From IMG/VR virus record IMGVR_UViG_3300026512_000006, positions 1 to 64,000 of that record: DNA of 64,000 nucleotides, one strand, 5' to 3'. Below are positions 3,096 to 64,000 of the stretch, piece after piece. Each line of letters opens with the position of its first letter. The stretch's first letter is position 1. The position numbers were made by a program, and so were the translations under genes. The DNA is from a virus. The notes beneath the pieces are model-generated. The model was not told where the DNA came from. It searched no databases and worked only from the letters and a program-made list of their open reading frames with translations.

Positions 3096-4066
3096 AATAA
3101 TTTAAGTAATAATTGTTTATAGACCTTACTATCGGCTTTTGCTGGTAACGTAGTTGATTTTACTAAGTTATCTACCTCTTCAATAGTGGTAAGTATAACT
3201 TCCATAACATCTTCTAATTGTTCATTTCCTTCTTTAATAGATTTAATGTAAGTTCTATCAAGTAAAGGAAAAGTTATTGTATTAACAGTTAATAGCTCTC
3301 GTACTTCAAATAAAACTCGTACGGCATGACTAAGTGCTTTATAGTCAATAGAAGTAACTGCGTTTTTAGTACGATTACCATATTGTGTTTTTATTAATTG
3401 TAGACGAGATATAATATAATCACGATCTAATGAGATATCAAATAATTTTCCTAATACAGAAAGATAGGTAGTATTTCCTTTAGTATTATTTTTAGTGTTT
3501 TTGGCTTGTATTATTTTTATATAACTGTAAGTATTATTAGCAATTATTGTTTCTAATGAAGTATTTGGGTATTCTTTAATTTGTTCTAAAAAATTTAGCA
3601 ATTCTTTATAACGTTTACCTTTAACATTGTATCGTTTACTTTGTCCTATTGCATAACCTAGGAAGGCATGAACATTACTATGAAGTAAGTTAGGGAGTTC
3701 TTTTAAAATTTCTTCTGATTGCTTAGTATAAAGTAATTGAGTATCTTTATGTTGCATACTGAATAGTAAATCAAGCGCTCCTGTTTCACCTTTTTTTAAA
3801 AGATGTAGAAACTTGTGGATAGACCATAGTTGAATATCTATATCTTCTAAATCATTACGGGATTTATTATTACCTGTAGTAGTAGTATAATGTTCTGCAT
3901 CTGTTTTAAGTAATAAAGATTCTTTAGATGGTATAAATATTCCTTTGTAATCTTTATCTGAATTAGAATTTTTAGTTCCATAAAGTCTTGAGCCTGACAA
4001 TGTCACGTAGATTACCTTGTAATCAGGGAATTGTTTATAAAATGGTTCTAGTAATTTAGCTATCAT
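3092..4066 (-). CDS. Pol-beta superfamily nucleotidyltransferase (RlaP-like, RNA-repair associated type)
   Basis: N-terminal LSGSRLYGTKNSNSDKDYKGIF matches the GS-x10-DxD NTase signature. Size and helical C-terminal half fit the 'predicted nucleotidyltransferase' family found next to RNA repair genes. Confidence 0.55.
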   Translation of the reverse strand: MIAKLLEPFYKQFPDYKVIYVTLSGSRLYGTKNSNSDKDYKGIFIPSKESLLLKTDAEHYTTTTGNNKSRNDLEDIDIQLWSIHKFLHLLKKGETGALDLLFSMQHKDTQLLYTKQSEEILKELPNLLHSNVHAFLGYAIGQSKRYNVKGKRYKELLNFLEQIKEYPNTSLETIIANNTYSYIKIIQAKNTKNNTKGNTTYLSVLGKLFDISLDRDYIISRLQLIKTQYGNRTKNAVTSIDYKALSHAVRVLFEVRELLTVNTITFPLLDRTYIKSIKEGNEQLEDVMEVILTTIEEVDNLVKSTTLPAKADSKVYKQLLLKLL

Positions 4067-4266
4067 TTTGATGCCTCACATTGTTTTTTAAAGCTTAGTT
4101 TCCAGTATTTAACTTGATGTTCTAATTGACTTAGTTGTTTATCAAAATCGTTAAAAATTGCATGTAAGATATTATCGTGTTCAAATTTTGTGATAGCATC
4201 TATATTCCCTGAACAGTCTACTTTTACTTTTTGTATATTTATATTTAGGGCTTCTTCTCTTGTCAT
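4063..4266 (-). CDS. hypothetical protein (67 aa)
   Basis: ORF track; ATGA overlap with the upstream exonuclease gene. Confidence 0.55.
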   Translation of the reverse strand: MTREEALNINIQKVKVDCSGNIDAITKFEHDNILHAIFNDFDKQLSQLEHQVKYWKLSFKKQCEASK

Positions 4267-8343: not shown

Positions 8344-8805
8344 TTACAACTCCCAAGGTTTCTTAGGGAGCGGTTCTGTTATTGATTGTTGGGCTTTAAT
8401 GGCTTTTACTTCTTCTTTAGTTTTATTATCTGCAGCTGCCTTAGTTTTTAGTTTATCTGCTTTTAGTTTTTCTTTTTCTGCTATTAAAGTTAGTCGTTTT
8501 TCCTCTTGCTTTGCAAAGGAGTCTATTTGAGATTGAGTTCTACCGAATGTTGGCATTTTAGTTTTCTTGCCAGCCGTTGGTGTTACAGACGGTTTAGAGC
8601 TAGCTGAAGGCTTAGAAGTAGTAGGTGCTGATGATTCATCCTCTGCAGCTTGTTTGAGGGCTGAGTAGCTTCTATTGAAGTCTGACGGCATGTTATTTAA
8701 GAAAGCCATTACAGCCGCTACTTCTTTGTATGTTAAGTTTAATGTTATTGATACTGTTTTCAAATTAATCTCCTTTAGTATTCTATTGAAGCGTACACTG
8801 TACAC
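8344..8805 (-). CDS. hypothetical protein with S/T/P-rich linker and Lys-rich coiled coil (153 aa)
   Basis: ORF track; AAAGGAG SD. Confidence 0.55.
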   Translation of the reverse strand: MYSVRFNRILKEINLKTVSITLNLTYKEVAAVMAFLNNMPSDFNRSYSALKQAAEDESSAPTTSKPSASSKPSVTPTAGKKTKMPTFGRTQSQIDSFAKQEEKRLTLIAEKEKLKADKLKTKAAADNKTKEEVKAIKAQQSITEPLPKKPWEL

Positions 8806-9057
8806 TTCTCACAATACTATATTTATTGTTCTCATCCGTTTTTCCTCTAACGGTTTGTCTAAAAGTATAGTTTCTCTTGAGTAGGGCTGGAAACATATAA
8901 AACAGAAGCCAAGCAGTTTTATTGAGTGTCAGACTATTCCTCTAGCAAAATAATATTTATCGTCTTCTATTTTCAATTAGACTAGCTATAATTATCATCT
9001 ATAGCAAAGAGCATACTTATTATTTAATCGACATATTAGTATACAAATATTGTCCAT

Positions 9058-9079
9058 AAGATACTCCGAAGAGTACCTT
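9058..9079 (-). terminator. stem-loop with UUCG tetraloop just after the JAMM gene stop
   Basis: Minus strand AAGGUACUC-UUCG-GAGUAUCUU (9 bp incl. one G-U). No clear U-tract, so it may be a stabiliser rather than a terminator. Confidence 0.35.
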
Positions 9080-9088
9080 AGGACAGTA

Positions 9089-10294
9089 TTAGTAACGAAA
9101 TAATGTATCTTCGTAGCTGTAGGTAATTTTTTCATCGATTTTAGTGTATTCTTCTTCTTGAAGCCATAAAATATCTTGTAAGTATAAGATATTTTTTATC
9201 GGGTTTATGGAAGTTAAAACATATTCATCTACTACGCATTCAAGATCTTTTAAAATCATTTTTAATTTTTCTTTAGACATTTTCTTTAATTCTTTTTCAG
9301 TATATAAAGAGATAGTATATTCTTCTTGAATTGCAGCAGCTATTGCTTTATATTCTAAAGAGGTAGGTGCTGGTATTTTTGTTATCGGTTTACTGAAAGA
9401 TTTAGTAGAGTTTATTTCGTAGTTATACTTTGAAATAAATGATTTTTCTTCTAAGTTTTCTTCTTTAACAAATTGAGTAGATGCATTGTATTTCAGCTTT
9501 TTAAAAAGTTCTCTAATATTATTTACTAATGTATTTATAGGAATATTATCCGCTACAGTGTAAGATAAATCGACAGGAACTACTCCTAAAAGTTTTTCTA
9601 CTTCTGAAGGATTTGTTGTTTCAGCATGAATTATTGAAGCACATCTATTCTTATGGTAAGTTATAGTATTAGATGTAGTTGTATTAGCTAGGCGATACTC
9701 TGTATGACAAATTTCTGTTCTATCTGATTTGTGTAACATAATGGAGCTAAATGATGGTTTTTGAAAATCTTTTTCTATTTCTGCTAAAGGAAAACAAATA
9801 CCTGGATCAGGGAATGTTGTAGATAAGTCAGTGCCACTAAATGTTGCCAAGTTACCAGGATGGCGATGTATTGTGCCAAGGTTCACAGATATCCATTCAA
9901 AAGATGCTGAAGGGAACTGTGCTTTTAGTTTGGTGCCAAATGTGGATTTTGTTAATTCATTAACTTTAGTGTTGTGAATTATTTTTAAGGAGTCACTCAT
10001 AGTATCAACATCTTTAAGATTGAAATCAATAGCTGCTGAACTTACAGTTTGTTTATAATTAAAATAGACTGTTGGTATTGCTATATCAATTATAGAACCA
10101 TCTTTAAATGTAAATCTACCATTGAGAAACCAGTAGTGTACTTGGTATTCATTGTGATGTGTAAGTGGTCCTGAATTAGTGGTGATAGCATTAATATCCA
10201 AATCTTTAAATAGAATTATACCTAAATTTTTAGTGTTAGTGTAATCTTCAATTGTTGGTAAGGTTATTGCGGTTGGTAGTACAAGTTTTTTCAT
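9089..10294 (-). CDS. JAB/JAMM (MPN+) metallopeptidase domain protein (401 aa)
   Basis: HRHPGNLATFSGTD = H-x-H-x7-S-x2-D JAMM signature at ~aa 154-167; AAGGAG SD; long C-terminal extension with a coiled coil. Confidence 0.7.
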   Translation of the reverse strand: MKKLVLPTAITLPTIEDYTNTKNLGIILFKDLDINAITTNSGPLTHHNEYQVHYWFLNGRFTFKDGSIIDIAIPTVYFNYKQTVSSAAIDFNLKDVDTMSDSLKIIHNTKVNELTKSTFGTKLKAQFPSASFEWISVNLGTIHRHPGNLATFSGTDLSTTFPDPGICFPLAEIEKDFQKPSFSSIMLHKSDRTEICHTEYRLANTTTSNTITYHKNRCASIIHAETTNPSEVEKLLGVVPVDLSYTVADNIPINTLVNNIRELFKKLKYNASTQFVKEENLEEKSFISKYNYEINSTKSFSKPITKIPAPTSLEYKAIAAAIQEEYTISLYTEKELKKMSKEKLKMILKDLECVVDEYVLTSINPIKNILYLQDILWLQEEEYTKIDEKITYSYEDTLFRY

Positions 10295-14872: not shown

Positions 14873-15126
14873 TTTCCTTTAATGGGTTTTGGCATTTTAT
14901 GTACTCTACGTGTCAAAATGAGTTTTATCTTGTAGAAGAAGCCTTGGCGTCTAGCTGTTCTCCAAGTGAGTTGTCTTAAAGAATATGGCTTTTTTCTATG
15001 AGAAGAAGTATAATAATTACCTAGGAATTTAAAGGTAATTGTATATTGGCGTAATTCAAATAATACAATACCTTCTTCGTATGCTTGAAGACGATTAGAT
15101 TGTCCGTTGATACTAATATTTTTCAT
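14869..15126 (-). CDS. hypothetical basic protein (85 aa)
   Basis: ORF track; overlaps both neighbours by a few nt. Confidence 0.45.
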   Translation of the reverse strand: MKNISINGQSNRLQAYEEGIVLFELRQYTITFKFLGNYYTSSHRKKPYSLRQLTWRTARRQGFFYKIKLILTRRVHKMPKPIKGN

Positions 15127-15748
15127 GTTTTGCCTTTAATGTTTGTACAAATTCTAATGGAGCAATATTGTCCCAATCTCCTTTTTGTTGTAAATATCTA
15201 TAATGGTTGTCAAATTCATCCCCAAATGTTTCTTTAAAGCATAAAGCTCCATATCTACCAATGTAGTATTCATTACAATTATTATCCCAAAACACACATA
15301 ACTCGGTATATTTAGGTTTCCATAATTCAACATTATCTATCCTGTAGTGTTCAGATGTACTAGAATGTACATAAGTAGCATCTATAGCATTTATTTGTAT
15401 TATTATAGAATAACCTTTTCTTTGTACCCAATCACCGACTTTAAATTCAGGTTCTTCTGGTTTTATACGTATATTTTTGGTATTAAACCAAGTATCTAAT
15501 TTACGGTAATGCGTAGACCAAGTTTTACCATCATCTTCTGTATATTGTAATTCCTTGCCATCTACTAATGCTTTTCTAAATTCAGCATATTTATCGTTTT
15601 GTACATAAAAGTAATCTTTACACCAGTTAGGTGTATTGTCTATATGCCATTCACTGTAGGGAGTCTTTTTTTTCCATACACCTTTAGTTGGATTATCAAC
15701 AAACCATTTTATAACTTCTTTATGTTTTTCAACTTGTTCTATTGTCAT
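15113..15748 (-). CDS. Trp-rich paralog family B protein (211 aa)
   Basis: The N-terminal 100 aa are ~80% identical to 15798-16133 (EQVEKH..VIKWFVDNP.KGVW.K.TP...IDNTPNW...YVQNDKYAEFRKALVDGKELQYT). Confidence 0.65.
   Translation of the reverse strand: MTIEQVEKHKEVIKWFVDNPTKGVWKKKTPYSEWHIDNTPNWCKDYFYVQNDKYAEFRKALVDGKELQYTEDDGKTWSTHYRKLDTWFNTKNIRIKPEEPEFKVGDWVQRKGYSIIIQINAIDATYVHSSTSEHYRIDNVELWKPKYTELCVFWDNNCNEYYIGRYGALCFKETFGDEFDNHYRYLQQKGDWDNIAPLEFVQTLKAKHEKY
15541..15608. repeat. 68-nt exact duplicate of 15926-15993
   Basis: Identical string tatattgtaattccttgccatctactaatgcttttctaaattcagcatatttatcgttttgtacataa in both paralogs. Confidence 0.9.
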
Positions 15749-15797: not shown

Positions 15798-16133
15798 TTA
15801 TCTATAATATGCCCAGTCATTAATTTCAAATCTAAGTTCTTCTGGTTTTATGCGAATATTTTCAGGAGTATAAAAAGTATTTAATTTATTATAATTAGTA
15901 AACCAAGTCTTACCATTATTTATTGTATATTGTAATTCCTTGCCATCTACTAATGCTTTTCTAAATTCAGCATATTTATCGTTTTGTACATAAGTATAAT
16001 CTTCGTACCAATTAGGTGTGTTATCTATATACCAGTCATTAGTAGGAGTATCTTTTCTCCATACTCCTTTATCAGGATTATCCACGAACCATTTGATTAC
16101 TGTACCATGTTTTTCTACTTGTTCTTTAGTCAT
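15798..16133 (-). CDS. Trp-rich paralog family B protein (111 aa)
   Basis: See 15113-15748; carries the second copy of the 68-nt exact repeat (15926-15993). Confidence 0.65.
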   Translation of the reverse strand: MTKEQVEKHGTVIKWFVDNPDKGVWRKDTPTNDWYIDNTPNWYEDYTYVQNDKYAEFRKALVDGKELQYTINNGKTWFTNYNKLNTFYTPENIRIKPEELRFEINDWAYYR

Positions 16134-16150
16134 GTAATATCCTTTTAACT

Positions 16151-16549
16151 TTATCTATATTGTTTTAAAATAGCGAGTATTTTATCTTGATTAGGTAAGA
16201 TTGGATTGCCTATATGTTTAATATACCATTTTAATGATTTTTCAATTTCATTTAATTGGCTTATGCTAAACCAGCGGTCTAATTCACATAAACCAAATTC
16301 ATATAATTCAGAGGTTATTTCATAAATATGGTCTATTGGTATGAATAATTCGTCGTTAAAAAATGCTAAAGCTTCTTCGAGTGTTTTCACTTTAACTACT
16401 TTACTGTTTTTCATAATTACTTTATAAAATAAAGTATTATTTGCCAAATTTGCTCCTAGTAAAATTTCTTTATTATTTTTCGCAGCAAGTACAGTAGTAC
16501 AGTTAATTCTGTATTCAACCATATTATTTAATATTTCTTCTCTAGTCAT
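16151..16549 (-). CDS. hypothetical protein (132 aa)
   Basis: ORF track. Confidence 0.6.
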   Translation of the reverse strand: MTREEILNNMVEYRINCTTVLAAKNNKEILLGANLANNTLFYKVIMKNSKVVKVKTLEEALAFFNDELFIPIDHIYEITSELYEFGLCELDRWFSISQLNEIEKSLKWYIKHIGNPILPNQDKILAILKQYR

Positions 16550-16563
16550 TATTTATCCTTGTT

Positions 16564-16932
16564 TTAAAATCCATTCACAAGCTTTAAAACAGCTTCTGGT
16601 TCTGTATTTTCTACAAATGTATCTACTTTATCTAAAAATATGTTTAAAGCTACATAATCCTTATGATAAATTATCTGAATAGCTTTATTGTGGTGTTGAA
16701 TAGCCCATTCTTTACACTTATGAACTAATTCATAAAGATTGAAATATCTTAAATGAGTACTTTTTTGATCTTGATATTTAAAATTTAAATAAGTTCCGTC
16801 ATAGTCACTCGTAATATTTACAACTCTTGTAATTCCTAATTCATTTATAGATTTAGAAATAGGAATGCCTGTAATTACACTTAATAATTTTTTACTTGGT
16901 AATACCATTATAACCTCCTTAACAATAGTCAC
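16564..16932 (-). CDS. hypothetical protein (122 aa)
   Basis: ORF track. Confidence 0.6.
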   Translation of the reverse strand: MTIVKEVIMVLPSKKLLSVITGIPISKSINELGITRVVNITSDYDGTYLNFKYQDQKSTHLRYFNLYELVHKCKEWAIQHHNKAIQIIYHKDYVALNIFLDKVDTFVENTEPEAVLKLVNGF

Positions 16933-17007
16933 TAAATCTAATAAGACTTTTTACTTTCTTAACGATTATTTGTGCATAGCTAGCTTTTTACATATTCCAT
17001 TTAAACT

Positions 17008-17193
17008 TTAGCGCTTTTTGTTTAATAATTTGGCAGCTGTTATATCCCAGTCATAGCTCTGTAATCCTTTAAGGGCTTGTGCAAACTCGCCTACTGATAT
17101 ATCTTCTGATACACTAAGACGATTTAAAGCATATTCCCAATCAGTTCGTAACTTATATTCTATATAAGCATCTTCTTTTGCTTCTTGTTTCAT
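17008..17193 (-). CDS. hypothetical protein (61 aa)
   Basis: ORF track. Confidence 0.5.
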   Translation of the reverse strand: MKQEAKEDAYIEYKLRTDWEYALNRLSVSEDISVGEFAQALKGLQSYDWDITAAKLLNKKR

Positions 17194-17250
17194 TTCTTCT
17201 CTAATTTCTCTAGGTATTATTTTGTTCCCCTTTATATAATTATATATCTA

Positions 17251-17580
17251 TTATTCATTTCTGATAAGCATTAAATCATCGTACATTTCATCAATAAGTT
17301 GTTGTGCTAATTCTTCTGTTTTAAGATATTGCCAATTAGGATATTGCCAATTAGGATAACATTTGTTTGCTAGCCACCCTTGAGATACTAGACGAGTATT
17401 GTTTAAGTTTAAACTAAATGATCAATTATTCTCATTTAGTTTAAATTCAATAATTTCTCCATTATTTAGTTCCCAAATACGTTTCTTAACTCTGTATTTA
17501 GCAGCACGAAGTTTTACTTCTTTTTCTGCTTCTTCCCTAGTTTTAAATACATTTCCTTGTTTAATAGTATCTTTATCCAT
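17251..17580 (-). CDS. hypothetical protein, 109 sense codons with one in-frame TGA (17422-17424)
   Basis: Own translation: MDKDTIKQGNVFKTREEAEKEVKLRAAKYRVKKRIWELNNGEIIEFKLNENN[TGA]SFSLNLNNTRLVSQGWLANKCYPNWQYPNWQYLKTEELAQQLIDEMYDDLMLIRNE, then TAA. The plus-strand ORFs listed here look like low-complexity shadows. Confidence 0.5.
17411..17442 (-). promoter_or_regulatory. perfect 11-bp stem / 10-nt loop hairpin with the in-frame UGA in its loop
   Basis: Minus strand AAACUAAAUGA-GAAUAAUUGA-UCAUUUAGUUU. The last three loop nucleotides are the UGA codon. Confidence 0.6.
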
Positions 17581-17644
17581 TTTATAATTCCAATGATTAC
17601 TTGTATCTATATACCCTGCTATACCTATAAAATAAGCTCTTTTA

Positions 17645-17869
17645 TTATTTTTTGGTTTCCACCATTTTGGTGTTTTTTATATATATTTTCCATTTTGTTT
17701 CATCCCATGACTTGTTCATTGGAATATTATATGAAAGAATATCTATAAATCGAAAAGGTTTAGTGTATGTCTCATCGTAATAACAATAGGTTATATTATT
17801 ATAATTTTTGGGAGTTAATTTTTCTCCATTTATCAGTCTTTGTATTAATTCTTTTTTAGTTAATGTCAT
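17645..17869 (-). CDS. hypothetical protein (74 aa from MTLTKKELIQ...)
   Basis: ORF track 17645-17929. The internal ATG at 17869 gives the usual short overlap with the upstream gene end (17856). Confidence 0.5.
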   Translation of the reverse strand: MTLTKKELIQRLINGEKLTPKNYNNITYCYYDETYTKPFRFIDILSYNIPMNKSWDETKWKIYIKNTKMVETKK

Positions 17870-18341
17870 TTTTTTCTCCTTGATATAAATCTTCAGGCTT
17901 AACAGGTTTAGCGTATTGCCAACTAGCACCTCCTCGTACTACGAAAGGATATTTAGTATCTTTTTCATAGTTTTTAAAAGTTCTTAAAAGCCATTCTCTT
18001 TCTTTAAAATCTCTAACCCATACAGGCTTATCTATCATATCAGGGTCTTCATACCATTCTTTAGGTTTAATACGATATCTAGTACAAATATTCCAAGTAG
18101 GGGTACATTCTACCCATTTTCTTAAACTTACGTCATACATTTGAAATTGAGTTTCTGGTTTATCTATTTGTAATTTTTTAAGTTTTGCTTGTTTATCATC
18201 TACTATATAAATTTCAGTTTCATTCCAAGTTGGTATATTTTTTAAACTCCAAAATTTTTCATGAGGATACCTACACCATACATTGTCTCTTCTTATACTT
18301 ATCCATCTACTAAATTCTTTTCTAATTTCTTCATTAGTCAT
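17856..18341 (-). CDS. Trp-rich protein distantly related to family B (161 aa)
   Basis: Shared pattern W..P.W....Y.V.D..A......Q......W......W...YRIKP with 15113-15748 and 15798-16133. Confidence 0.6.
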   Translation of the reverse strand: MTNEEIRKEFSRWISIRRDNVWCRYPHEKFWSLKNIPTWNETEIYIVDDKQAKLKKLQIDKPETQFQMYDVSLRKWVECTPTWNICTRYRIKPKEWYEDPDMIDKPVWVRDFKEREWLLRTFKNYEKDTKYPFVVRGGASWQYAKPVKPEDLYQGEKNDIN

Positions 18342-18342
18342 T

Positions 18343-18810
18343 TTATTTTCCTTTATAAATTAAATTTTTTAATTTAGCAAAATCTTGTTTTACTAATCCA
18401 TAATCACCGTTTGGTTGATATGTATGTATATAGCTATTTATACGAATATTTTGACCTTTACACCCTTTTTTTAATATTACAGATATTTCATCATCTATTA
18501 CTATGGAATAATCGTAGTTTAATGAAATTAAGTTTACATTTGATATTAGTTTATTTGTATCTCCTTTTAATTTGAAAGGTAGATGTGGCTGAAGTTTTTC
18601 TAGTTTCCATGCACTGAATACAAATACATCAATATTATATTTTTTAATTAGTCTAGCTAGTCTTGTTACTTTTTTAGGGTAAGGATTAAAGCAATTGTAT
18701 TCTTTTTTGAAGTTATTTCTTTTATATTTTTTATACCTTTTAATTCTTTCATGTGCTCGATACTGATTCAATACTCCGTCAACATCTAAAAAAATAGCTG
18801 TAGTTTTCAT
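18343..18810 (-). CDS. HAD-superfamily phosphatase-like protein (155 aa)
   Basis: N-terminal FLDVDGVLN = HAD motif I (DxDGx). Confidence 0.6.
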   Translation of the reverse strand: MKTTAIFLDVDGVLNQYRAHERIKRYKKYKRNNFKKEYNCFNPYPKKVTRLARLIKKYNIDVFVFSAWKLEKLQPHLPFKLKGDTNKLISNVNLISLNYDYSIVIDDEISVILKKGCKGQNIRINSYIHTYQPNGDYGLVKQDFAKLKNLIYKGK

Positions 18811-18860
18811 TTCTTTCCTTTATTTATTTATATTCATCAAGGTTTATAGGTCTTATATGG

Positions 18861-18947
18861 TATTAGAGATATTTATCCATACCATTAATCAGAGCTTACA
18901 AAGATTATAAAGATATTTATTCATATTATTTATCAAAACTATACAAG
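18861..18947 (-). repeat. imperfect ~43-nt tandem direct repeat upstream of the HAD gene
   Basis: tattagAGATATTTATcCATAccATTaATCAgAgCTtaCAAG / ttataaAGATATTTATtCATAttATTtATCAaAaCTatacAAG. Confidence 0.6.
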
Positions 18948-19003
18948 AAAGCCTCCGGCAAGAACTAGCAGTAGCGATTAGATAGTATAAGCATTACTAT
19001 GGA

Positions 19004-19016
19004 ATCCCATAGGGAT
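19004..19016 (-). promoter_or_regulatory. 5-bp stem / 3-nt loop DNA hairpin ATCCC-ATA-GGGAT
   Basis: Perfect palindromic arms; lies just downstream of the RNAP terminator and upstream of the next operon. Confidence 0.25.
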
Positions 19017-19038
19017 GGAATTGGAATGATTCTATTTA

Positions 19039-19069
19039 GAAAAAAAAAGAAGTAGTACCCAAAGGGTAC
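19039..19069 (-). terminator. intrinsic terminator after the RNAP C-terminal subunit gene
   Basis: Minus strand GUACCC-UUU-GGGUAC followed by UACUUCUUUUUUUUUC; begins 4 nt after the stop codon. Confidence 0.75.
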
Positions 19070-19072
19070 GTA

Positions 19073-19822
19073 TTAGCAGAGAGCATATGAAGATTTTTCA
19101 AGACCTTTTACTAACTTTGTTGTATTTATACTAAAGTCTTTTTCACAAAATTCTTCAAGATAATTGCCTTCAGCTATAACTTTGAGAGCTTCTTTGTAGA
19201 GTTCTCGTAATTTAGACATGTTATTAGGATGAGCTTGTAGTTCATCATGTATATGCGATACTTGAAAGTCTGCATTTTCTACTACGTAACGTATTACAAA
19301 GGCGTCTAAACTATGCACTACATTAGGAGCTAATGAAGTTTTTACATTTGATGGCATATTCTTTTCATAACGATAAGGTAAGTTAAGGCCTTCTTGTTCG
19401 ATAATTCCATCTATGTGTTGAGTTACTTTGACATGAGCTACATGTCCATCTGGGAGAGCCCATTCGTGGAACATAGTAGTATTATCCCATCTATCGTTGA
19501 GAGCTTTTAGGACATTCATAGCGCCGGGGAATAACTCTTGAAGGGTATCGTAGAAAGCATGAAGTTCTTCAGTATCTTCTCCAAAGGCTTCAAGAGGTTG
19601 TAGACGACTATTATACATAGTAGTCATTACAGGCTTTTTACAGAAAGAGCGTACTTGTTTAAATGACATTCCATCGAAGATAGTAGAGTGAGGTATTTTT
19701 TCTAACATACGTGTAGCTACTAGACTATAAGGGTCGGCTCTAATAGTTGTTTCGATATAGTTATTTTTATTTGTTTTAATATTACGTATTTCTGCTAAAA
19801 TTTGTTGTTTAGTGCGTTTCAT
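19073..19822 (-). CDS. T7-like (N4 RNAPII-type) RNA polymerase, C-terminal catalytic subunit (249 aa)
   Basis: RSFCKKPVMTTMYNS ~ T7 motif B RSVTKRSVMTLAYGS. APNVVHSLDA ~ APNFVHSQDG. SHIHDELQ ~ motif C IHDSFGT. C-terminal SSYALC ~ DFAFA. Has its own AGGAGG SD 4 nt upstream of the ATG. Confidence 0.85.
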   Translation of the reverse strand: MKRTKQQILAEIRNIKTNKNNYIETTIRADPYSLVATRMLEKIPHSTIFDGMSFKQVRSFCKKPVMTTMYNSRLQPLEAFGEDTEELHAFYDTLQELFPGAMNVLKALNDRWDNTTMFHEWALPDGHVAHVKVTQHIDGIIEQEGLNLPYRYEKNMPSNVKTSLAPNVVHSLDAFVIRYVVENADFQVSHIHDELQAHPNNMSKLRELYKEALKVIAEGNYLEEFCEKDFSINTTKLVKGLEKSSYALC

Positions 19823-19837
19823 ATTTCCTCCTACGGA

Positions 19838-19975
19838 TTATAAAGAAGCTAATTCTGCTTCTAATTCTTCAAGGCGTAATTGAGCCTCCTCTGTGTACTC
19901 ACGTATTATTTTAGGGTTTACATTAGAATTTTCAGCTGTAGTTGTACATCCACTTAGTAGAGACATTATTTGGAG
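19838..19975 (-). CDS. T7-like RNA polymerase middle subunit, exon 2 (45 codons + TAA)
   Basis: LQIMSLLSGCTTTAENSNVNP continues T7 ...SGIQHFSAMLRDEVGGRAVNL after motif A; ends EEAQLRLEELEAELASL-stop. Confidence 0.7.
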   Translation of the reverse strand, partial: LQIMSLLSGCTTTAENSNVNPKIIREYTEEAQLRLEELEAELASL

Positions 19976-20347
19976 CGTTGTATTCAAGTAAGGGCGTTAA
20001 TCTTACTTCGTTATTAAGTTACCAAATACATAACCACGTAACTCTTTAGGTATTCTACCATCATAAAGGTCTGCGCGTTTATTTATATTTATTTAACTTA
20101 ATAACTGCTTAATATTTCTATTAAGACTAGACTATATCATCTCCCGTTCTGGGAGTTCCGCACTTCGAATACACTTGTATTCTACGGACTTCATCTACTG
20201 TTCTAGTAGGTATGTCCTAGTCGTTGCACCTTCAAAGAGATTCCTCTCTAAGCTTGGCTCATGATTGCCTTCAGCGTTATCTGTTAAGGGTTCCCATGAA
20301 TTCACGGAATATTTTTAGAATAGCATTCCTGTTAAACTGGGCGATTC
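19976..20347 (-). mobile_element. group I intron (372 nt, no ORF) inside the RNAP middle-subunit gene
   Basis: The intron interrupts the conserved DATASG|LQ motif A. The exon ends in U and the intron ends in G. An R-like element GUGCAACGACUAGGAC (20214-20230) and an S-like element GAUGAUAUAGUCUAGUC (20125-20141) have complementary GACUA/UAGUC (P7). GCCC 5 nt into the intron can pair with exon GGGU (P1). The region is GC-rich and structured relative to the exons. Confidence 0.8.
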
Positions 20348-21019
20348 ACCCGAAGCTGTTGCGTCTAACCCCATATTATGTCCTATTGGATTGCCTTTTA
20401 TAACACCTTCGTACCATGCGTAGATAGCTTTTATAAGAAGTTGTGGGGTATCTGCTATAGCTATATACTTATTTAAAGCTTCTTCATTAATTTCATTATT
20501 TATAAAGATTTCTTTAATGACTTTATTAGCTTCTGTGATACGTTTAAACCATACATCTTTATCATAGCCTAAGCAATTTGCTATATCTATTTTGAGGTAT
20601 GTCATGCCCTCTGAGGTTAGTAATTCTTTGTCTGAGAAGCTTAACATAGCTTTACGGTATTCATTGCCTTGTATGTTACAGTGATACCCTTGTGAGTACA
20701 TTCGGCCTCTTTTGTCATATTTCCATCCAAAGTAGAATTTATTGCCATTTTCTAGTAAGTAGTCTATTACGTTGTTTGTTTCTTTGTCACGTAGCTTATA
20801 AGACTTTACACGTTCTTTTTCTTCTATAGCTGATAGAGGTTTGCTTGATGGCTTTAATGTATCTGTAAGTAAATGTAGAATATTCTCATTTAATTCCCAT
20901 GGAATTGCTTGAAGTTTATTGATTGCATTTTTATTTACTCGTTGCCCTACAAAGTTTCCTCTGCCTAATACTAGTGTGTCTTTGTCTTTAGTTAATAAAT
21001 GAGATACGATACGTTTCAT
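20348..21019 (-). CDS. T7-like RNA polymerase middle subunit, exon 1 (224 codons)
   Basis: WKYDKRGRMYSQGYHCNIQGNEYRKAML ~ T7 DWRGRVYAVSMFNPQGNDMTKGLL (T/DxxGR). LKIDIANCLGYDK ~ LKIHGANCAGVDK. GLDATASG ~ motif A FDGSCSG. The track ORF then runs into intron-encoded ESPSLTGMLF-stop. Confidence 0.85.
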
Positions 21020-21053: not shown

Positions 21054-21644
21054 TTAGTAGTCTAGTGGTTTAATTAACATTGGCGGCAAGTATTGTGTAA
21101 ATTTGATACGTTTATATAAGTCTATTGAGACATGCATAGTTGGAATTACTACGGCAGAGTCTCCATGTATTTCTGTATGTCCTCCACGGTTTACTGCACG
21201 GTCTTCTTCTTTTACTACTCGTACATCAAATATTCCCATATCATGGAATTCTGATAGTATATCAATACCTGTTTGTACTGCGTCTATTTGGTCGTGATGA
21301 AGTGCTAGGCCTATTTGAGTTGCTACTGCTTGTAATGGAGCTACACCTGCAAAGGCTACCTCTTTACCTCCACGAATTAAGATATCTGGTTTGATAAGAA
21401 TTATAGAAGATAGCAGTGTATTTACTATAAGCTGTTTAGCGTCTTCTAAGGTATATAGAAGGCAAAGTTCTTCTATTCTGGCTTTACTGTCTAAGTCACT
21501 GCGTTCTTTTGTTAAGAAGAGCTCTGCACGGTCTAAGGCTAAGTCAATAGATGCTTGGTCTATTGATGATATTTCTTCTTGAATCCATTTAGTTATGTTA
21601 TGTTTACCTTGTACTGCTTCTGTTAGTAGTTGTGTTGAATACAT
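21054..21644 (-). CDS. T7-like RNA polymerase N-terminal piece (196 aa)
   Basis: The C-terminus TQYLPPMLIKPLDY ~ T7 FQPCVVPPKPW, which precedes the region aligned by the next ORF. Separate stop, 34-nt spacer and AAAGGA SD before the next gene. Confidence 0.6.
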   Translation of the reverse strand: MYSTQLLTEAVQGKHNITKWIQEEISSIDQASIDLALDRAELFLTKERSDLDSKARIEELCLLYTLEDAKQLIVNTLLSSIILIKPDILIRGGKEVAFAGVAPLQAVATQIGLALHHDQIDAVQTGIDILSEFHDMGIFDVRVVKEEDRAVNRGGHTEIHGDSAVVIPTMHVSIDLYKRIKFTQYLPPMLIKPLDY

Positions 21645-25630: not shown

Positions 25631-26445
25631 GAATGCCTCCTACGGCTTTGATTTATATAGAGTGTGTGATTCCGTCAAGTAGTACAGTATTTAAACCCTG
25701 CGATAGTGATGCTATGTTTTAGCTAGTATCCGACTAACACGTCTAGTGACTATATCGAACTGTAAGTGACATCTGTACATTTGTATCTCCTATGTAATTT
25801 ATCTATTGATATCTCACCACTATAGTAGTAGGTTATGCGTACAGAAATGATATACATTTGGTATGTAGTACTACGGAATTTTTATGGGTCCCTTTTCAAA
25901 GTTATTAGGGGGGGGGGTATATTTGGTATGAGTCCCCTTGGGGACCTATACTGCACGCACCTCACAAAATAACAATCCAAACTATAAGCCCCCCTTAAAA
26001 AGTAATCCATGTAAACTACTAATACCTATATGTTAATTAGACCTTCGGCCCAATTCCCGGCTTACTAATCCTACAATCTCAAAAAATAAAAAATTAACTA
26101 TAAAGGCCTAAAGGCTGCCCAGCAATAGATACAAGTATCAGATAACCCTAATACAACGAACAAGTAAGCCAGCTATACGAGCTAGTGAGGGAAGCCGATA
26201 GGCTAACCGAATTAGTGAGTAGAGCGAGTGGTAACTAGACGAAGGCTATGTTACATTGTATGGATCATTTTAAGGTACATTGTGCAACTTCTTTCCCAGA
26301 GACTAGTGATTTACTCCCTTGGTACCGATAAAGCCTTCAAGAGCTCCAGAGAGTTCTCTAGTAGTATTGAAGTACATGCACTAATTTTTAAGCTAAGACT
26401 AAGAAAGCTGTACTATACTGCTATAATTAATATAAAGGAGCTTTA
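25631..26445. other. divergent ORF-free control region / possible genome-end junction
   Basis: 815 bp without credible ORFs between oppositely oriented arrays. Contains a G10 run (25908-25917), the palindrome GTCCCCTTGGGGAC (25932-25945), a C6 run (25989-25994) and five exact TAGTGA hexamers on one strand. Confidence 0.5.
26419..26427 (+). promoter_or_regulatory. extended -10 promoter element TGcTATAAT
   Basis: Ends 18 nt upstream of the first plus-strand ATG (26446). Confidence 0.45.
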
Positions 26446-49780: not shown

Positions 49781-49789
49781 ACAGGTTAG

Positions 49790-49843
49790 TTAGTAGCGTA
49801 AGCTACTAATTAGTTACTGTTAAGGCTCCTCTAAGGAGTCCTT
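49790..49843 (+). terminator. two tandem stem-loops after the capsid gene
   Basis: UUAGUAGC-GUAA-GCUACUAA (GNRA loop) and AAGGCUCC-UCUAA-GGAG(U)CCUU. U-tracts are weak, so these may be mRNA-stabilising hairpins. Confidence 0.45.
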
Positions 49844-49935
49844 AACTATAATACAACTTGATTTATGAGAGGTGTAGCAATAGCTAGAACATATGGCAAT
49901 AGGTTAGTACCTACCCACAATAAAGGAACAATTTA

Positions 49936-61403: not shown

Positions 61404-64000
61404 ATGGCATGTAGTATAAAGAGTATTATAAGAGAACTAGTAAGTAAGCCTACTATTAGTGAAGATAAATACCCAGAGGTGTTCAAAGACCTTAAAGAGC
61501 TTCAAGCAGTACAGCAAGAGATGGCTATACTAGCTAAAGCTATGCCTCCTAGGGAGTTGGTCACTTATAGGATAGAGAGTGATAATAGATACCAAGAGCT
61601 GCTGCAAGAGCGTGAAGATATTAATAACGCATCTAAAGAGAAGCTTGATAAGATATTCGAGAATCTAAAAGCTAAAGGCGGTAAGAAGTTTGCAGCTAAG
61701 CTGGAACTAAATACGAAGAAGCTACTAGGTTGGATTAATAACTACAAAACTGAACTTAAAGAACTTGAAGATGAATTAGATCCAGAACTATATTCTGCTA
61801 AAGAGATTACTAATACAAAGAAAGCTATTAAACGAATAACTAGTAAGATAACTGAGTATGAAGTGTTTATAGCTAAAGGTAAGAGAGACGCTACGTCAGC
61901 AAAGTCTAGAGACACTAAGGCGTTCAATACTAAAGAGAAAGAGGCATTGAAAAAAGCTGAAGCTTTAGAAGACGTTAATAGACGCATTAGAGAGCTTAAG
62001 CAAACTTACAGTGCAGGATTTTTATCTATAAATAATACTCCATCTAAGTTAAAAGCTAGGAAGGATAAGTTACTAAATTACATGAGAGCTAAACCTGTAT
62101 ACAACAACTTAGTAAGATTTAAAGAGGATGTGAATTCATTTACAAAGTTACTAGGAAAGGTTGAAGTAACTGATGAACATATGCCAGAGGCTAAAGAAGT
62201 TATGGAATTTCTAGAGAAAGCTATTAACTATACTACAGCAGATAAGATGTATCAAGGTATAGACTTAAGAGATTACAGCATCCCAGACGGAGCTGAAGCT
62301 TATCAGAATATATCTAGACTAATGTTTGTGGAAAATGCTGACAGGAAACTAATACTAAGACCTGAGGCAGTTACAGCTTTAGCTGCAGCTTCTACAGATT
62401 GGTTAGCTAATTCGGTTGATAGATGGAATGAAAGAACTGACGACGATGTAAACAGATTCTTTGGCATTCCTGCAGGAGCACAAGTTACAGCAGAGCAGCG
62501 TAAAAGGCTAGTTGACGTAGACACACTTACTAGTACTGCTGCTAATGCTATAGGGCAAGCTGTAGTTAAGTCTCTTGGTATTAAACCGGATTTAGATAAG
62601 TCTGACGTGTCAGAGATATTAGTTGCTAAGCTAAGCACAGAGCTAGGACTGATAGGGCTAGAGTCGATGAAAAGTGGTAAGCTACTAGACATGAATACTA
62701 AAAATGACACAGAAGTGTATGGTGAAGCTGGTAAAGGAAACAAGATAGGTATTGCTACCTTGACAAGTATTGACAAACTTAAAGCTAATCAAAGAACTAA
62801 GGTATTTGGTTCTAAAGTAAGTTTAGGTTTAGCTACTAAAGCTATTACAAAAATACTAGCTGCTGAAAGTAGCAGTAAAGGCCCTAGGTTTAGCAAAACT
62901 AGAGGAGATAAAGAAGTAATAAATCAGTCAGCTCAAGGTAAATACTTTACTACAGCACCAAAAACTCAAGAAGCTCTTAATAAGCACGAGAATGTTGAAT
63001 GGAATTGGAATGATGATTTCATGACAGATTTTAATAGTATAGTAGCTGACGAAAAAGAAAAGCAGAGACTTAGAGTATTTCTAGGATGGCAAGACCCTGA
63101 GAAAGTACATAGTACTAACAGGGAGGGCGTCAACGGCAAGAATTTAGCTATAGAAGCTAACATAGATCACATGATGACTCTAGAGGCTGACATGAAGAGT
63201 ACTGGTAAGACTAAGATGTTTTTCAATTACTTCTTTGGGAAGAATGGTAGATTTTATATAGACTCTAATACTTTTAACCCACAAGGTACAAAACTACATA
63301 GATTTGCTATTAATACTAAGCCTGAGGTAATAGAGACACAAGAAGATAAAGACATGATGTTATTATCTTTAGGTATGGCATTTGGTCTTGACATAGATAA
63401 GATGACTAAAGATAGCTCTATCAAAGAATGGGATAATATTAAAAGTCAAATAATTGAAATGGTTAAAGGCCATGAGAGCACATTGGATATAATGGATTTA
63501 CTGTACAGTAAAGATGTTAAAGACTCTAAAGGTAAAGGTGTCACACCTCACGATCCAGAGCATGCTTTAGCTGGGATAGCCGAGCTTAGAAGATACATAG
63601 AGTATATTGAGGCTAACAATGGGGATAGTAAGGGCTTTGAGGCTAAGCTAGTGCTTGAGGTAGATGCAGTAACTTCAGGATATATACTAAAGACATTACA
63701 GATGCCACTAATTGACAATCCAGAGTACCACTTAGAAGGTGGTGGAGTATTTGTTGGAGAGATGGTAGATGGCAAACCAGCATTCAAGTACAGCTCATTT
63801 GGTGAGCAAGCAGAAGATAAAGGTACTTTAGATGCATATCAGAAGCCTGCTAAAGAGATGGGTGAACGTATGCCTAAAATAGTTAAGAAGTATAAAGGCT
63901 CTGAAGCTATAGGAAGAGCTGTAGAGCTAGCACTAGGTAGTGACCTGGGATCAGCTGAAAATATAGCAGAGATATCTAGAAAGTTTATGAAGTCTCCGTT
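61404..64000 (+). CDS. N4-like virion-encapsidated RNA polymerase (vRNAP), 5' part; continues beyond the window
   Basis: The frame is open from ATG 61404 to the window end (865 codons). FFGKNGRFYIDSNTFNPQGTKLHR ~ T7 DWRGRVYAVSMFNPQGNDMTKG (T/DxxGR). LVLEVDAVTSGYILKTLQM ~ motif A LPLAFDGSCSGIQHFSAM. Minus-strand ORFs listed here are low-complexity shadows. Confidence 0.8.
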   Translation, partial: MACSIKSIIRELVSKPTISEDKYPEVFKDLKELQAVQQEMAILAKAMPPRELVTYRIESDNRYQELLQEREDINNASKEKLDKIFENLKAKGGKKFAAKLELNTKKLLGWINNYKTELKELEDELDPELYSAKEITNTKKAIKRITSKITEYEVFIAKGKRDATSAKSRDTKAFNTKEKEALKKAEALEDVNRRIRELKQTYSAGFLSINNTPSKLKARKDKLLNYMRAKPVYNNLVRFKEDVNSFTKLLGKVEVTDEHMPEAKEVMEFLEKAINYTTADKMYQGIDLRDYSIPDGAEAYQNISRLMFVENADRKLILRPEAVTALAAASTDWLANSVDRWNERTDDDVNRFFGIPAGAQVTAEQRKRLVDVDTLTSTAANAIGQAVVKSLGIKPDLDKSDVSEILVAKLSTELGLIGLESMKSGKLLDMNTKNDTEVYGEAGKGNKIGIATLTSIDKLKANQRTKVFGSKVSLGLATKAITKILAAESSSKGPRFSKTRGDKEVINQSAQGKYFTTAPKTQEALNKHENVEWNWNDDFMTDFNSIVADEKEKQRLRVFLGWQDPEKVHSTNREGVNGKNLAIEANIDHMMTLEADMKSTGKTKMFFNYFFGKNGRFYIDSNTFNPQGTKLHRFAINTKPEVIETQEDKDMMLLSLGMAFGLDIDKMTKDSSIKEWDNIKSQIIEMVKGHESTLDIMDLLYSKDVKDSKGKGVTPHDPEHALAGIAELRRYIEYIEANNGDSKGFEAKLVLEVDAVTSGYILKTLQMPLIDNPEYHLEGGGVFVGEMVDGKPAFKYSSFGEQAEDKGTLDAYQKPAKEMGERMPKIVKKYKGSEAIGRAVELALGSDLGSAENIAEISRKFMKSP

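Follow-up and report, generated by a model that had tools for sequence, protein, structure and literature searches.

The TGA codon at 17422-17424 on the minus strand of the window, by which we mean the whole 64,000-nt stretch of viral DNA analysed here, probably belongs to a recently inactivated accessory gene of an N4-like phage. Three lesions mark the gene, namely a frameshift at a homopolymer, TGA in place of TGG and a tandem duplication, and a lineage-specific palindrome flanks the mutated Trp codon. We estimate the probability of this reading at about 0.8. The UGA would then act as a plain stop, and any read-through of it would be unprogrammed background. The question was settled by widening the comparison past the apparent ORF, which uncovered the upstream frameshift.

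Extent of the disrupted gene

The features of the gene, from its ancestral start to its original stop, are as follows.

17251-17869, minus strand: disrupted gene of about 205 codons once the frameshift is corrected, identified as a pseudogene by alignment with uninterrupted homologues
17876-17881, minus strand: Shine-Dalgarno (SD) sequence AAGGAG of the ancestral start, from the anti-SD duplex energy
17867-17869, minus strand: ancestral start ATG; the sequence MTLTKKEL lines up with the N-termini of homologues
17673-17678, minus strand: A6 run with one extra A (A5 to A6) causing the frameshift, from comparison with homologues
17645-17650, minus strand: TAA TAA closing the out-of-frame N-terminal read after 74 authentic and about 10 frameshifted residues
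17578-17580, minus strand: ATG proposed earlier as the start, really an internal codon that aligns with V, L, I, T or N in homologues
17408-17445, no strand assigned: perfect 14-bp palindrome with a 10-nt spacer (minus-strand arms 17445-17432 and 17421-17408, loop 17431-17422)
17422-17424, minus strand: in-frame TGA; the homologous codons indicate a nonsense change in an ancestral codon for an aromatic residue, most likely TGG (Trp)
17321-17358, minus strand: 15-nt in-frame tandem duplication (CCTAATTGGCAATAT, 2.5 copies; TRF score 69, 95% matches)
17251-17253, minus strand: original stop TAA of the gene, coinciding with the stop in every homologue

The initial annotation described a 109-codon ORF, intact except for one stop, from ATG 17580 to TAA 17251. 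The single internal stop is indeed there, namely the minus-strand TGA at 17422-17424 (...EFKLNENN[stop]SFSLNLNN...). The otherwise intact ORF is not: it is the 3' part of a longer gene of about 205 codons (17869-17251) that is frameshifted upstream. Related loci were taken from IMG/VR, JGI metagenomes and GTDB MAGs; L003 and L007 are the same locus, and the L004 copy is identical to that of L005. In L003, L005, L006, L008 and L010 the sequence matching the 109-codon frame constitutes the C-terminal half of a single uninterrupted protein of 198-207 aa.

The missing half lies directly upstream. The frame is open 5' of ATG 17580 up to a TAA right before ...KTPKWWKPKNNKRAYF... (translated ...KTPKWWKPK...), and the ORF at 17645-17929, in another frame, matches the N-terminal half of the homologues in L003, L006, L008 and L010. 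The pattern common to these N-terminal halves is M.LTK.EL..RL..GEKL ... W.ETEWE.Y.E.PEWW.PK. The tblastn match breaks between frames -1 and -2 at the A-run, where homologues read ...TAT GAA GAA ACA CCA GAA TGG TGG... and the window reads ...TAT ATA AAA A ACA CCA AAA TGG TGG.... Deletion of one A from the A6 run unites both gene halves in frame, and the corrected 205-aa product aligns end to end with its uninterrupted counterparts of 198-200 aa in L003, L010, L008 and L006 (two copies) at 51-62% identity. A programmed +1 frameshift at the A-run was considered and rejected: the A site would hold neither a stop nor a rare codon, the run is only 6 nt long and it is absent in homologues.

The initiation signals agree with the longer gene. 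The anti-SD duplex at ATG 17869 has an energy of -8.5 kcal/mol, compared with a median of -5.6 kcal/mol for 59 genes of the window, whereas ATG 17580 has no SD sequence and a duplex of only -3.3 kcal/mol. Translation from ATG 17869 would stop at TAA 17645, about 10 codons past the frameshift, and the UGA region would then be reached only through rare internal initiation, if at all. The C-terminal part is probably no longer expressed.

The third lesion, the 15-nt duplication, doubles YPNWQ within the most conserved C-terminal motif (YPNWQY) and is found in none of the homologues. Relative to intact orthologues, where a pseudogene is expected to show at least two independent disabling lesions, the gene has the frameshift and the nonsense codon, and also the motif duplication. 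The rest of the window is in good order: the structural module contains long uninterrupted ORFs, and intact ORFs outside the disrupted gene reach 1330 aa. The genome is therefore not generally degraded, and three lesions within about 430 nt of one small gene are meaningful.

From its sequence, the gene would encode a two-domain accessory protein of an N4-like phage. Pfam gave only a sub-threshold match to DUF7336 and nothing for the full-length homologues, and PHROGs gave only weak matches, mainly to families of unknown function. Relatives of the disrupted gene above about 62% identity were found neither in INPHARED phages (megablast and tblastn) nor in a search of 5.8 billion proteins, and likewise not in IMG/VR (searched with the protein and with the exact hairpin sequence), JGI metagenomes or GTDB genomes. 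Exact-protein look-ups of two intact neighbouring genes found no close relative of the window phage. Synteny with L003 is retained, as the upstream neighbour at 17856-18341 matches L003 9199-9726. The MAGs that contain relatives are binned as Campylobacterales and Peptostreptococcaceae. One phage contig, L006, has two tandem paralogues of the gene (8361-8960 and 8962-9558) that are 63% identical, one with Trp and the other with Tyr at the position of the TGA in the window.

The TGA codon and its palindrome

The initial annotation guessed that homologues would have Trp at the site of the stop, and alignment bears this out. The codon is TGG in five distinct genes (L005 with the identical L004, L006a, L008, L010 and the distant L001), TGC in L003, and TAC in L002 and L006b, while the L011/L009 allele has lost the segment with the site. 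The conserved context across homologues is N-[W/C/Y]-[S/T]-F, which is N-W-S/T-F in the TGG genes; L006a, for example, reads AAT AAT TGG TCT TTT and the window AAT AAT TGA TCA TTT. Since five homologous genes have TGG in the same context, one G-to-A transition is enough to give the stop, and the fallback proposal of a fresh TGG-to-TGA nonsense mutant stands.

The 56 C-terminal codons past the TGA are highly similar to homologues and contain no more stops or frameshifts. This similarity implies either that the inactivation was recent or that the segment is still translated to some extent. Sequence conservation downstream of the stop fits recent inactivation as well as it fits recoding, and is no demonstration of translation.

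The substitution pattern hints at relaxed constraint. Among 79 otherwise invariant residues, the window has the largest number of unique changes, seven as against two to six in the other genes, an excess that is not statistically decisive. Five of these seven replacements are E to K and sit in the conserved acidic motif adjoining the frameshift. Of the 16 nucleotide changes found only in the window, counted where the other five genes do not vary, 7 are G to A, compared with one to four in the others; this commonest class accounts for the five E-to-K replacements.

The TGA was described as lying within a perfect hairpin of 11 bp (17411-17442). It does form the final three bases of the 10-nt loop (GAAUAAUUGA), and the hairpin is indeed perfect; its stem is in fact longer, with 14 bp at 17408-17445. 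The arms UUUAAACUAAAUGA/UCAUUUAGUUUAAA give an RNA folding energy of -14.6 kcal/mol (z = -5.7 against dinucleotide shuffles). No other perfect hairpin with at least 11 bp and a loop of 3-12 nt occurs in the 64 kb, for which 0.39 are expected under a second-order Markov model. The hairpin is also the longest and top-ranked short-range inverted repeat in the window, with imperfect arms that reach 28 nt at 79% complementarity (17394-17459). Because nearly every pair of its stem is A-U, it comes only about 485th among 12,788 60-nt windows when these are ordered by folding energy alone. The palindrome is above chance level.

It is not conserved. In none of the seven homologous genes is the hairpin present: the arms are complementary at 14 of 14 positions in the window and at 4-9 of the 14 aligned positions in the homologues, with no indel in the arms and the nearest relative about 60% identical. 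At the same position L002 folds no better than shuffled sequence (z = +0.5). This low complementarity marks the palindrome as specific to the lineage of the window. Rfam gave no match at the hairpin at the gathering threshold or at E <= 1, and in a terminator and promoter scan it had no U-tract and was not terminator-like. The search of the window for sibling palindromes found none; the half-site search gave six matches for 2.9 expected, two of which are the hairpin itself.

We infer that the palindrome probably originated by template-switch (quasi-palindrome) mutagenesis, combined with drift in a sequence freed from protein-level selection. Error-prone replication or repair synthesis is described as yielding quasi-palindrome template switching, homopolymer frameshifts and clustered changes (PMC7202029; PMC3820800; bioRxiv 10.1101/2023.08.09.552703). 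The window resembles the quasi-palindrome events of the Ripley model, as seen in E. coli and yeast reporters (PMC7202029, PMC3820800), in that the repeat is perfect in one lineage and matches at only 4-9 of 14 positions in relatives, the substitutions are clustered and length-neutral, and a homopolymer frameshift and a short tandem duplication are nearby. It differs in that the TGA lies in the loop and is non-templated. If the palindrome extrudes as DNA, its loop could expose the complementary-strand cytosine to deamination, which would favour the G-to-A change.

In other respects the gene looks like an ordinary phage or bacterial pseudogene, with several independent lesions, intact orthologues elsewhere, fragments without initiation signals and other broken members of the family; the difference is that one of its lesions occupies the loop of a 14-bp palindrome whose perfection is unusual. 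One of the points against the pseudogene reading is that such a palindrome is far rarer than chance predicts. The probability that the stop falls in the loop by coincidence is roughly 1 in 10, given ten Trp codons and the G-to-A bias, and its position there is only partly explained.

Two features of the site (17408-17424, minus strand) are probably chance products of the AT-rich palindrome. The TGG-to-TGA change generated TGATCA, a GATC (Dam-type) or BclI site, where the loop meets the 3' arm. That arm also contains a canonical -1 slippery heptamer, U_UUA_AAC, which is in the zero frame.

Residual function, sequencing error and recoding

The gene may have undergone fission and retained a residual function, with an N-terminal domain of about 84 aa made from ATG 17869, perhaps a 52-aa peptide from ATG 17580, and the palindrome as a functional element in the dead 3' part, for instance a site for the processing or stability of RNA or a hairpin in the DNA that serves N4-type transcription as a signal. 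The N-terminal fragment does retain its SD sequence and 74 authentic residues, in L011 the family gene consists of two ORFs around an inserted homing-endonuclease gene with an own ATG for the C-terminal piece, and the palindrome, as the strongest short-range inverted repeat of the window, is statistically unexpected. DNA hairpins serve as virion-RNAP promoters in N4-like phages. Those promoter hairpins have 5-7-bp stems and 3-nt loops, unlike the 14-bp stem and 10-nt loop found here. With ATG 17580 lacking an SD sequence, and the palindrome lacking sibling sites in the window, an Rfam match, a U-tract and conservation in homologues, we consider this explanation unlikely.

Base-calling or consensus errors could have produced the extra A, the TGA or both, in which case the gene would be intact or have a single lesion. 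The frameshift is in a homopolymer, the classic place for indel errors, and no independent copy of the window genome for a cross-check was found in the databases searched. An artefact is nevertheless quite unlikely: the lesions within 430 nt are of three types (indel, substitution and 15-nt duplication), the remainder of the window has the long intact ORFs mentioned above, an A6 run is short for a systematic error, and the bias towards E-to-K and G-to-A changes speaks for genuine drift of the sequence.

The initial annotation proposed programmed recoding helped by the hairpin, through read-through, Trp insertion or bypassing. We found no support for it: the stop and the hairpin occur in no homologue, the gene is frameshifted upstream and duplicated downstream, and the proposed start is internal and has no ribosome-binding site. 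Each of the four forms of recoding considered, namely read-through, bypassing, selenocysteine insertion and code reassignment, fails at least one defining test.

Read-through of the UGA by Trp insertion, tuned by the hairpin, would yield a low level of the full-length C-terminal domain. Among stop codons UGA is the leakiest, and tRNA-Trp misreads it, for example in making the A1 protein of Q-beta. As in Q-beta coat/A1 and in viral read-through stimulated by structure, the UGA of the window stands where Trp fits, as the homologues show, and a strong RNA structure is nearby; the conserved downstream sequence also speaks for it. In those systems, by contrast, the stop is conserved in relatives, the upstream ORF is intact and initiated, and a stimulatory structure, where there is one, lies 3' of the stop. 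None of this applies here. Every homologue has a sense codon (TGG, TGC or TAC) at the site. The upstream ORF is broken at 17673-17678 and its proposed ATG is internal, which, together with the missing SD sequence, leaves no efficient delivery of ribosomes to the UGA. The 70 nt from the UGA on have z = 0.15 against shuffles, and the hairpin encloses the stop rather than trailing behind it. A ribosome with the UGA in its A site would cover or already have passed the 5' arm, 8-21 nt upstream, so that the helix would be open and unable to act as a downstream stimulator. The base after the UGA is U, which is not known as a notably leaky context. Programmed read-through is very unlikely.

A related version would make the hairpin a functional switch, as RNA or as extruded DNA, that sets read-through of the UGA as Trp for ribosomes starting at AUG 17580. 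If true, it would mean conditional synthesis of a stand-alone C-terminal domain, a form also seen in L002, where it is the called ORF P0001, and in L011, where it has an ORF to itself; we regard such a switch as highly improbable.

Reassignment or suppression of TGA, as Trp or selenocysteine, in the phage or its host is extremely improbable. Stop recoding is known in some phage lineages, where it touches many genes and usually comes with suppressor tRNAs (bioRxiv 10.1101/2021.08.26.457843; PMC9523058). When the window was translated with TGA as sense and aligned to all related loci, which covers only the regions that those loci share, 17422-17424 was the only in-frame TGA on a coding strand spanned by homology in those regions; other matches were in antisense frames of genes on the minus strand. 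TGA terminates 29 ORFs of at least 80 aa (22 on the minus and 7 on the plus strand), and one TGA end was checked against a homologue: the gene at 4063-4266 ends in TGA at most five residues from the end of its L011 homologue. All the remaining Trp codons of the disrupted gene are TGG, and the 64-kb window contains no tRNA genes. Campylobacterales and Peptostreptococcaceae, to which the MAGs with relatives are assigned, are not known to depart from the standard code. For selenocysteine, Cys would be expected in most relatives; it is found in one of nine distinct homologues, with Trp in five (including the distant L001) and Tyr in two. No SECIS hairpin was found shortly 3' of the UGA, either by folding (z = 0.15) or in Rfam (no match at E <= 1). 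A codon-usage screen for further ORFs interrupted by a single stop was non-discriminating, because real genes also gave high scores in their antisense frames.

Bypassing of the T4 gene 60 type can practically be dismissed: the matched AAU codons that were pointed out, one right before the UGA and one eight codons after, do flank a stop that directly follows the take-off codon and lies in local structure, as in gene 60, yet this AT-rich gene abounds in AAU and AAC, which makes the match weak evidence, the AAU-to-AAU hop would remove the conserved S-F of the N-W-S-F motif where a dispensable gap is expected, the hairpin encloses the take-off codon and stop in its 10-nt loop with the 5' arm 8-21 nt upstream instead of starting at the take-off codon, and the frameshift upstream stands against bypassing as well.

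Decay of the gene family and genome context

Inactivation of this gene is not confined to the window. The L002 copy has one in-frame TAA at a Lys codon (L002 434-436) in the N-terminal half, with no local structure, and homology runs on in frame on either side of it; as a result the gene caller gave only the C-terminal 105 aa (P0001). The L011/L009 copy is split in the linker by an insert (334-1089) with a 225-aa HNH/AP2 homing-endonuclease gene (ORF 347-1024; phrog_374, E = 4e-60; Pfam AP2), and its C-terminal piece has an own ATG overlapping the endonuclease stop (ATGA). Because of the TAA in L002 and the split in L011/L009, the family evidently appears dispensable.

The insertion in L011 and the damage in the window coincide in position. 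Nucleotide homology between the window and L011 ends at 17461, two bases off the edge of the extended palindrome, and resumes at 17343 with the second duplication copy, where 44 of 45 nt are identical (98%). Over this 45-nt tract the other homologues are about 70-76% identical to the window in a by-eye comparison, and the genes of the window and L011 are otherwise about 75% identical. Such high identity on the right flank of the insert points to mosaicism or to co-conversion of this tract. In the window the palindrome, the TGA and the first copy of the duplication lie together in a 117-nt segment, and it is this segment that L011 replaced with the endonuclease cassette, which suggests recombination activity at this place. 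We speculate that a homing endonuclease could have cut this endonuclease-free allele and that error-prone repair of the break left the palindrome, duplication and frameshift together as a scar. As a free-standing HNH endonuclease gene that splits a phage gene, the L011 insert concerns the same gene family and the same linker, and its junctions are the edges of the damaged 117-nt segment; it differs in that the window has no endonuclease gene at the site, and a causal tie through break repair is speculative.

One decaying accessory gene in an uncultured N4-like phage matters little in itself. It is a cautionary case, in which a pseudogene can mimic programmed recoding through three features: a stop in frame followed by conserved sequence, an internal ATG present by chance, and a conspicuous local hairpin. 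The 430-nt stretch may be of interest for mutational mechanisms: besides the homopolymer frameshift it contains the perfected palindrome, the tandem duplication and the G-to-A drift, these three in the segment that a relative swapped for a homing-endonuclease cassette.

The terminase is about 33% identical to those of N4-like podoviruses such as Achromobacter phage phiAxp-3 and N4-like phages of Klebsiella and Rhizobium. The disrupted gene is located in the early/middle region, just downstream of the genes for the RNAP II subunits. The T7-like RNA polymerase is encoded in pieces (21054-21644, 20315-21019 and 19073-19822), each with its own SD sequence. The possibility that this split reflects many broken genes was discarded, as separate RNAP II subunit genes are normal and are annotated in many N4-like phages. 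Between the ORFs 20315-21019 and 19073-19822, which are in the same frame, there is a stop-rich spacer of 492 nt (19823-20314, minus strand). It is strongly structured (-124.5 kcal/mol, z = -4.5 relative to shuffled sequence), and Rfam, including its group I and II introns, gave no match. Candidate explanations for the spacer are an intron that has escaped recognition, a structured RNA and a degenerate insert; in annotated N4-like phages small hypothetical ORFs occupy the corresponding place.

The neighbourhood of the disrupted gene contains a cluster of fast-evolving small early genes. The adjacent minus-strand paralogues at 15113-15748 and 15798-16133 have a common N-terminal domain of about 100 aa (MT.EQVEKH..VIKWFVDNP.KGVW...), the 111-aa protein looking like an N-domain-only form of the 211-aa one, and a related W-rich protein is encoded nearby at 17856-18341. 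The 16001-18000 segment has the lowest G+C content in the window (27.6%) and a plus-strand GC skew of -0.17, being one of only two 2-kb bins with negative skew; the skew is about 0 at 18001-20000 and between +0.01 and +0.32 in the rest. This composition suggests an island of accessory genes with a distinct mutational or acquisition history.

Close to the end of the window, 63213-63680 on the plus strand has a weak T7-RNAP-like match (GRFY..FNPQGTK..EVDAVTSG, E = 0.44) and possibly marks where the gene for the giant N4-type virion RNA polymerase begins. Within the window, local hairpins are most stable at 26171-26230, 49781-49850 and 9041-9100 (-23 to -25 kcal/mol per 60 nt). The first of them is located in the divergent region between minus-strand early and plus-strand late genes and is a candidate promoter, terminator or origin element.
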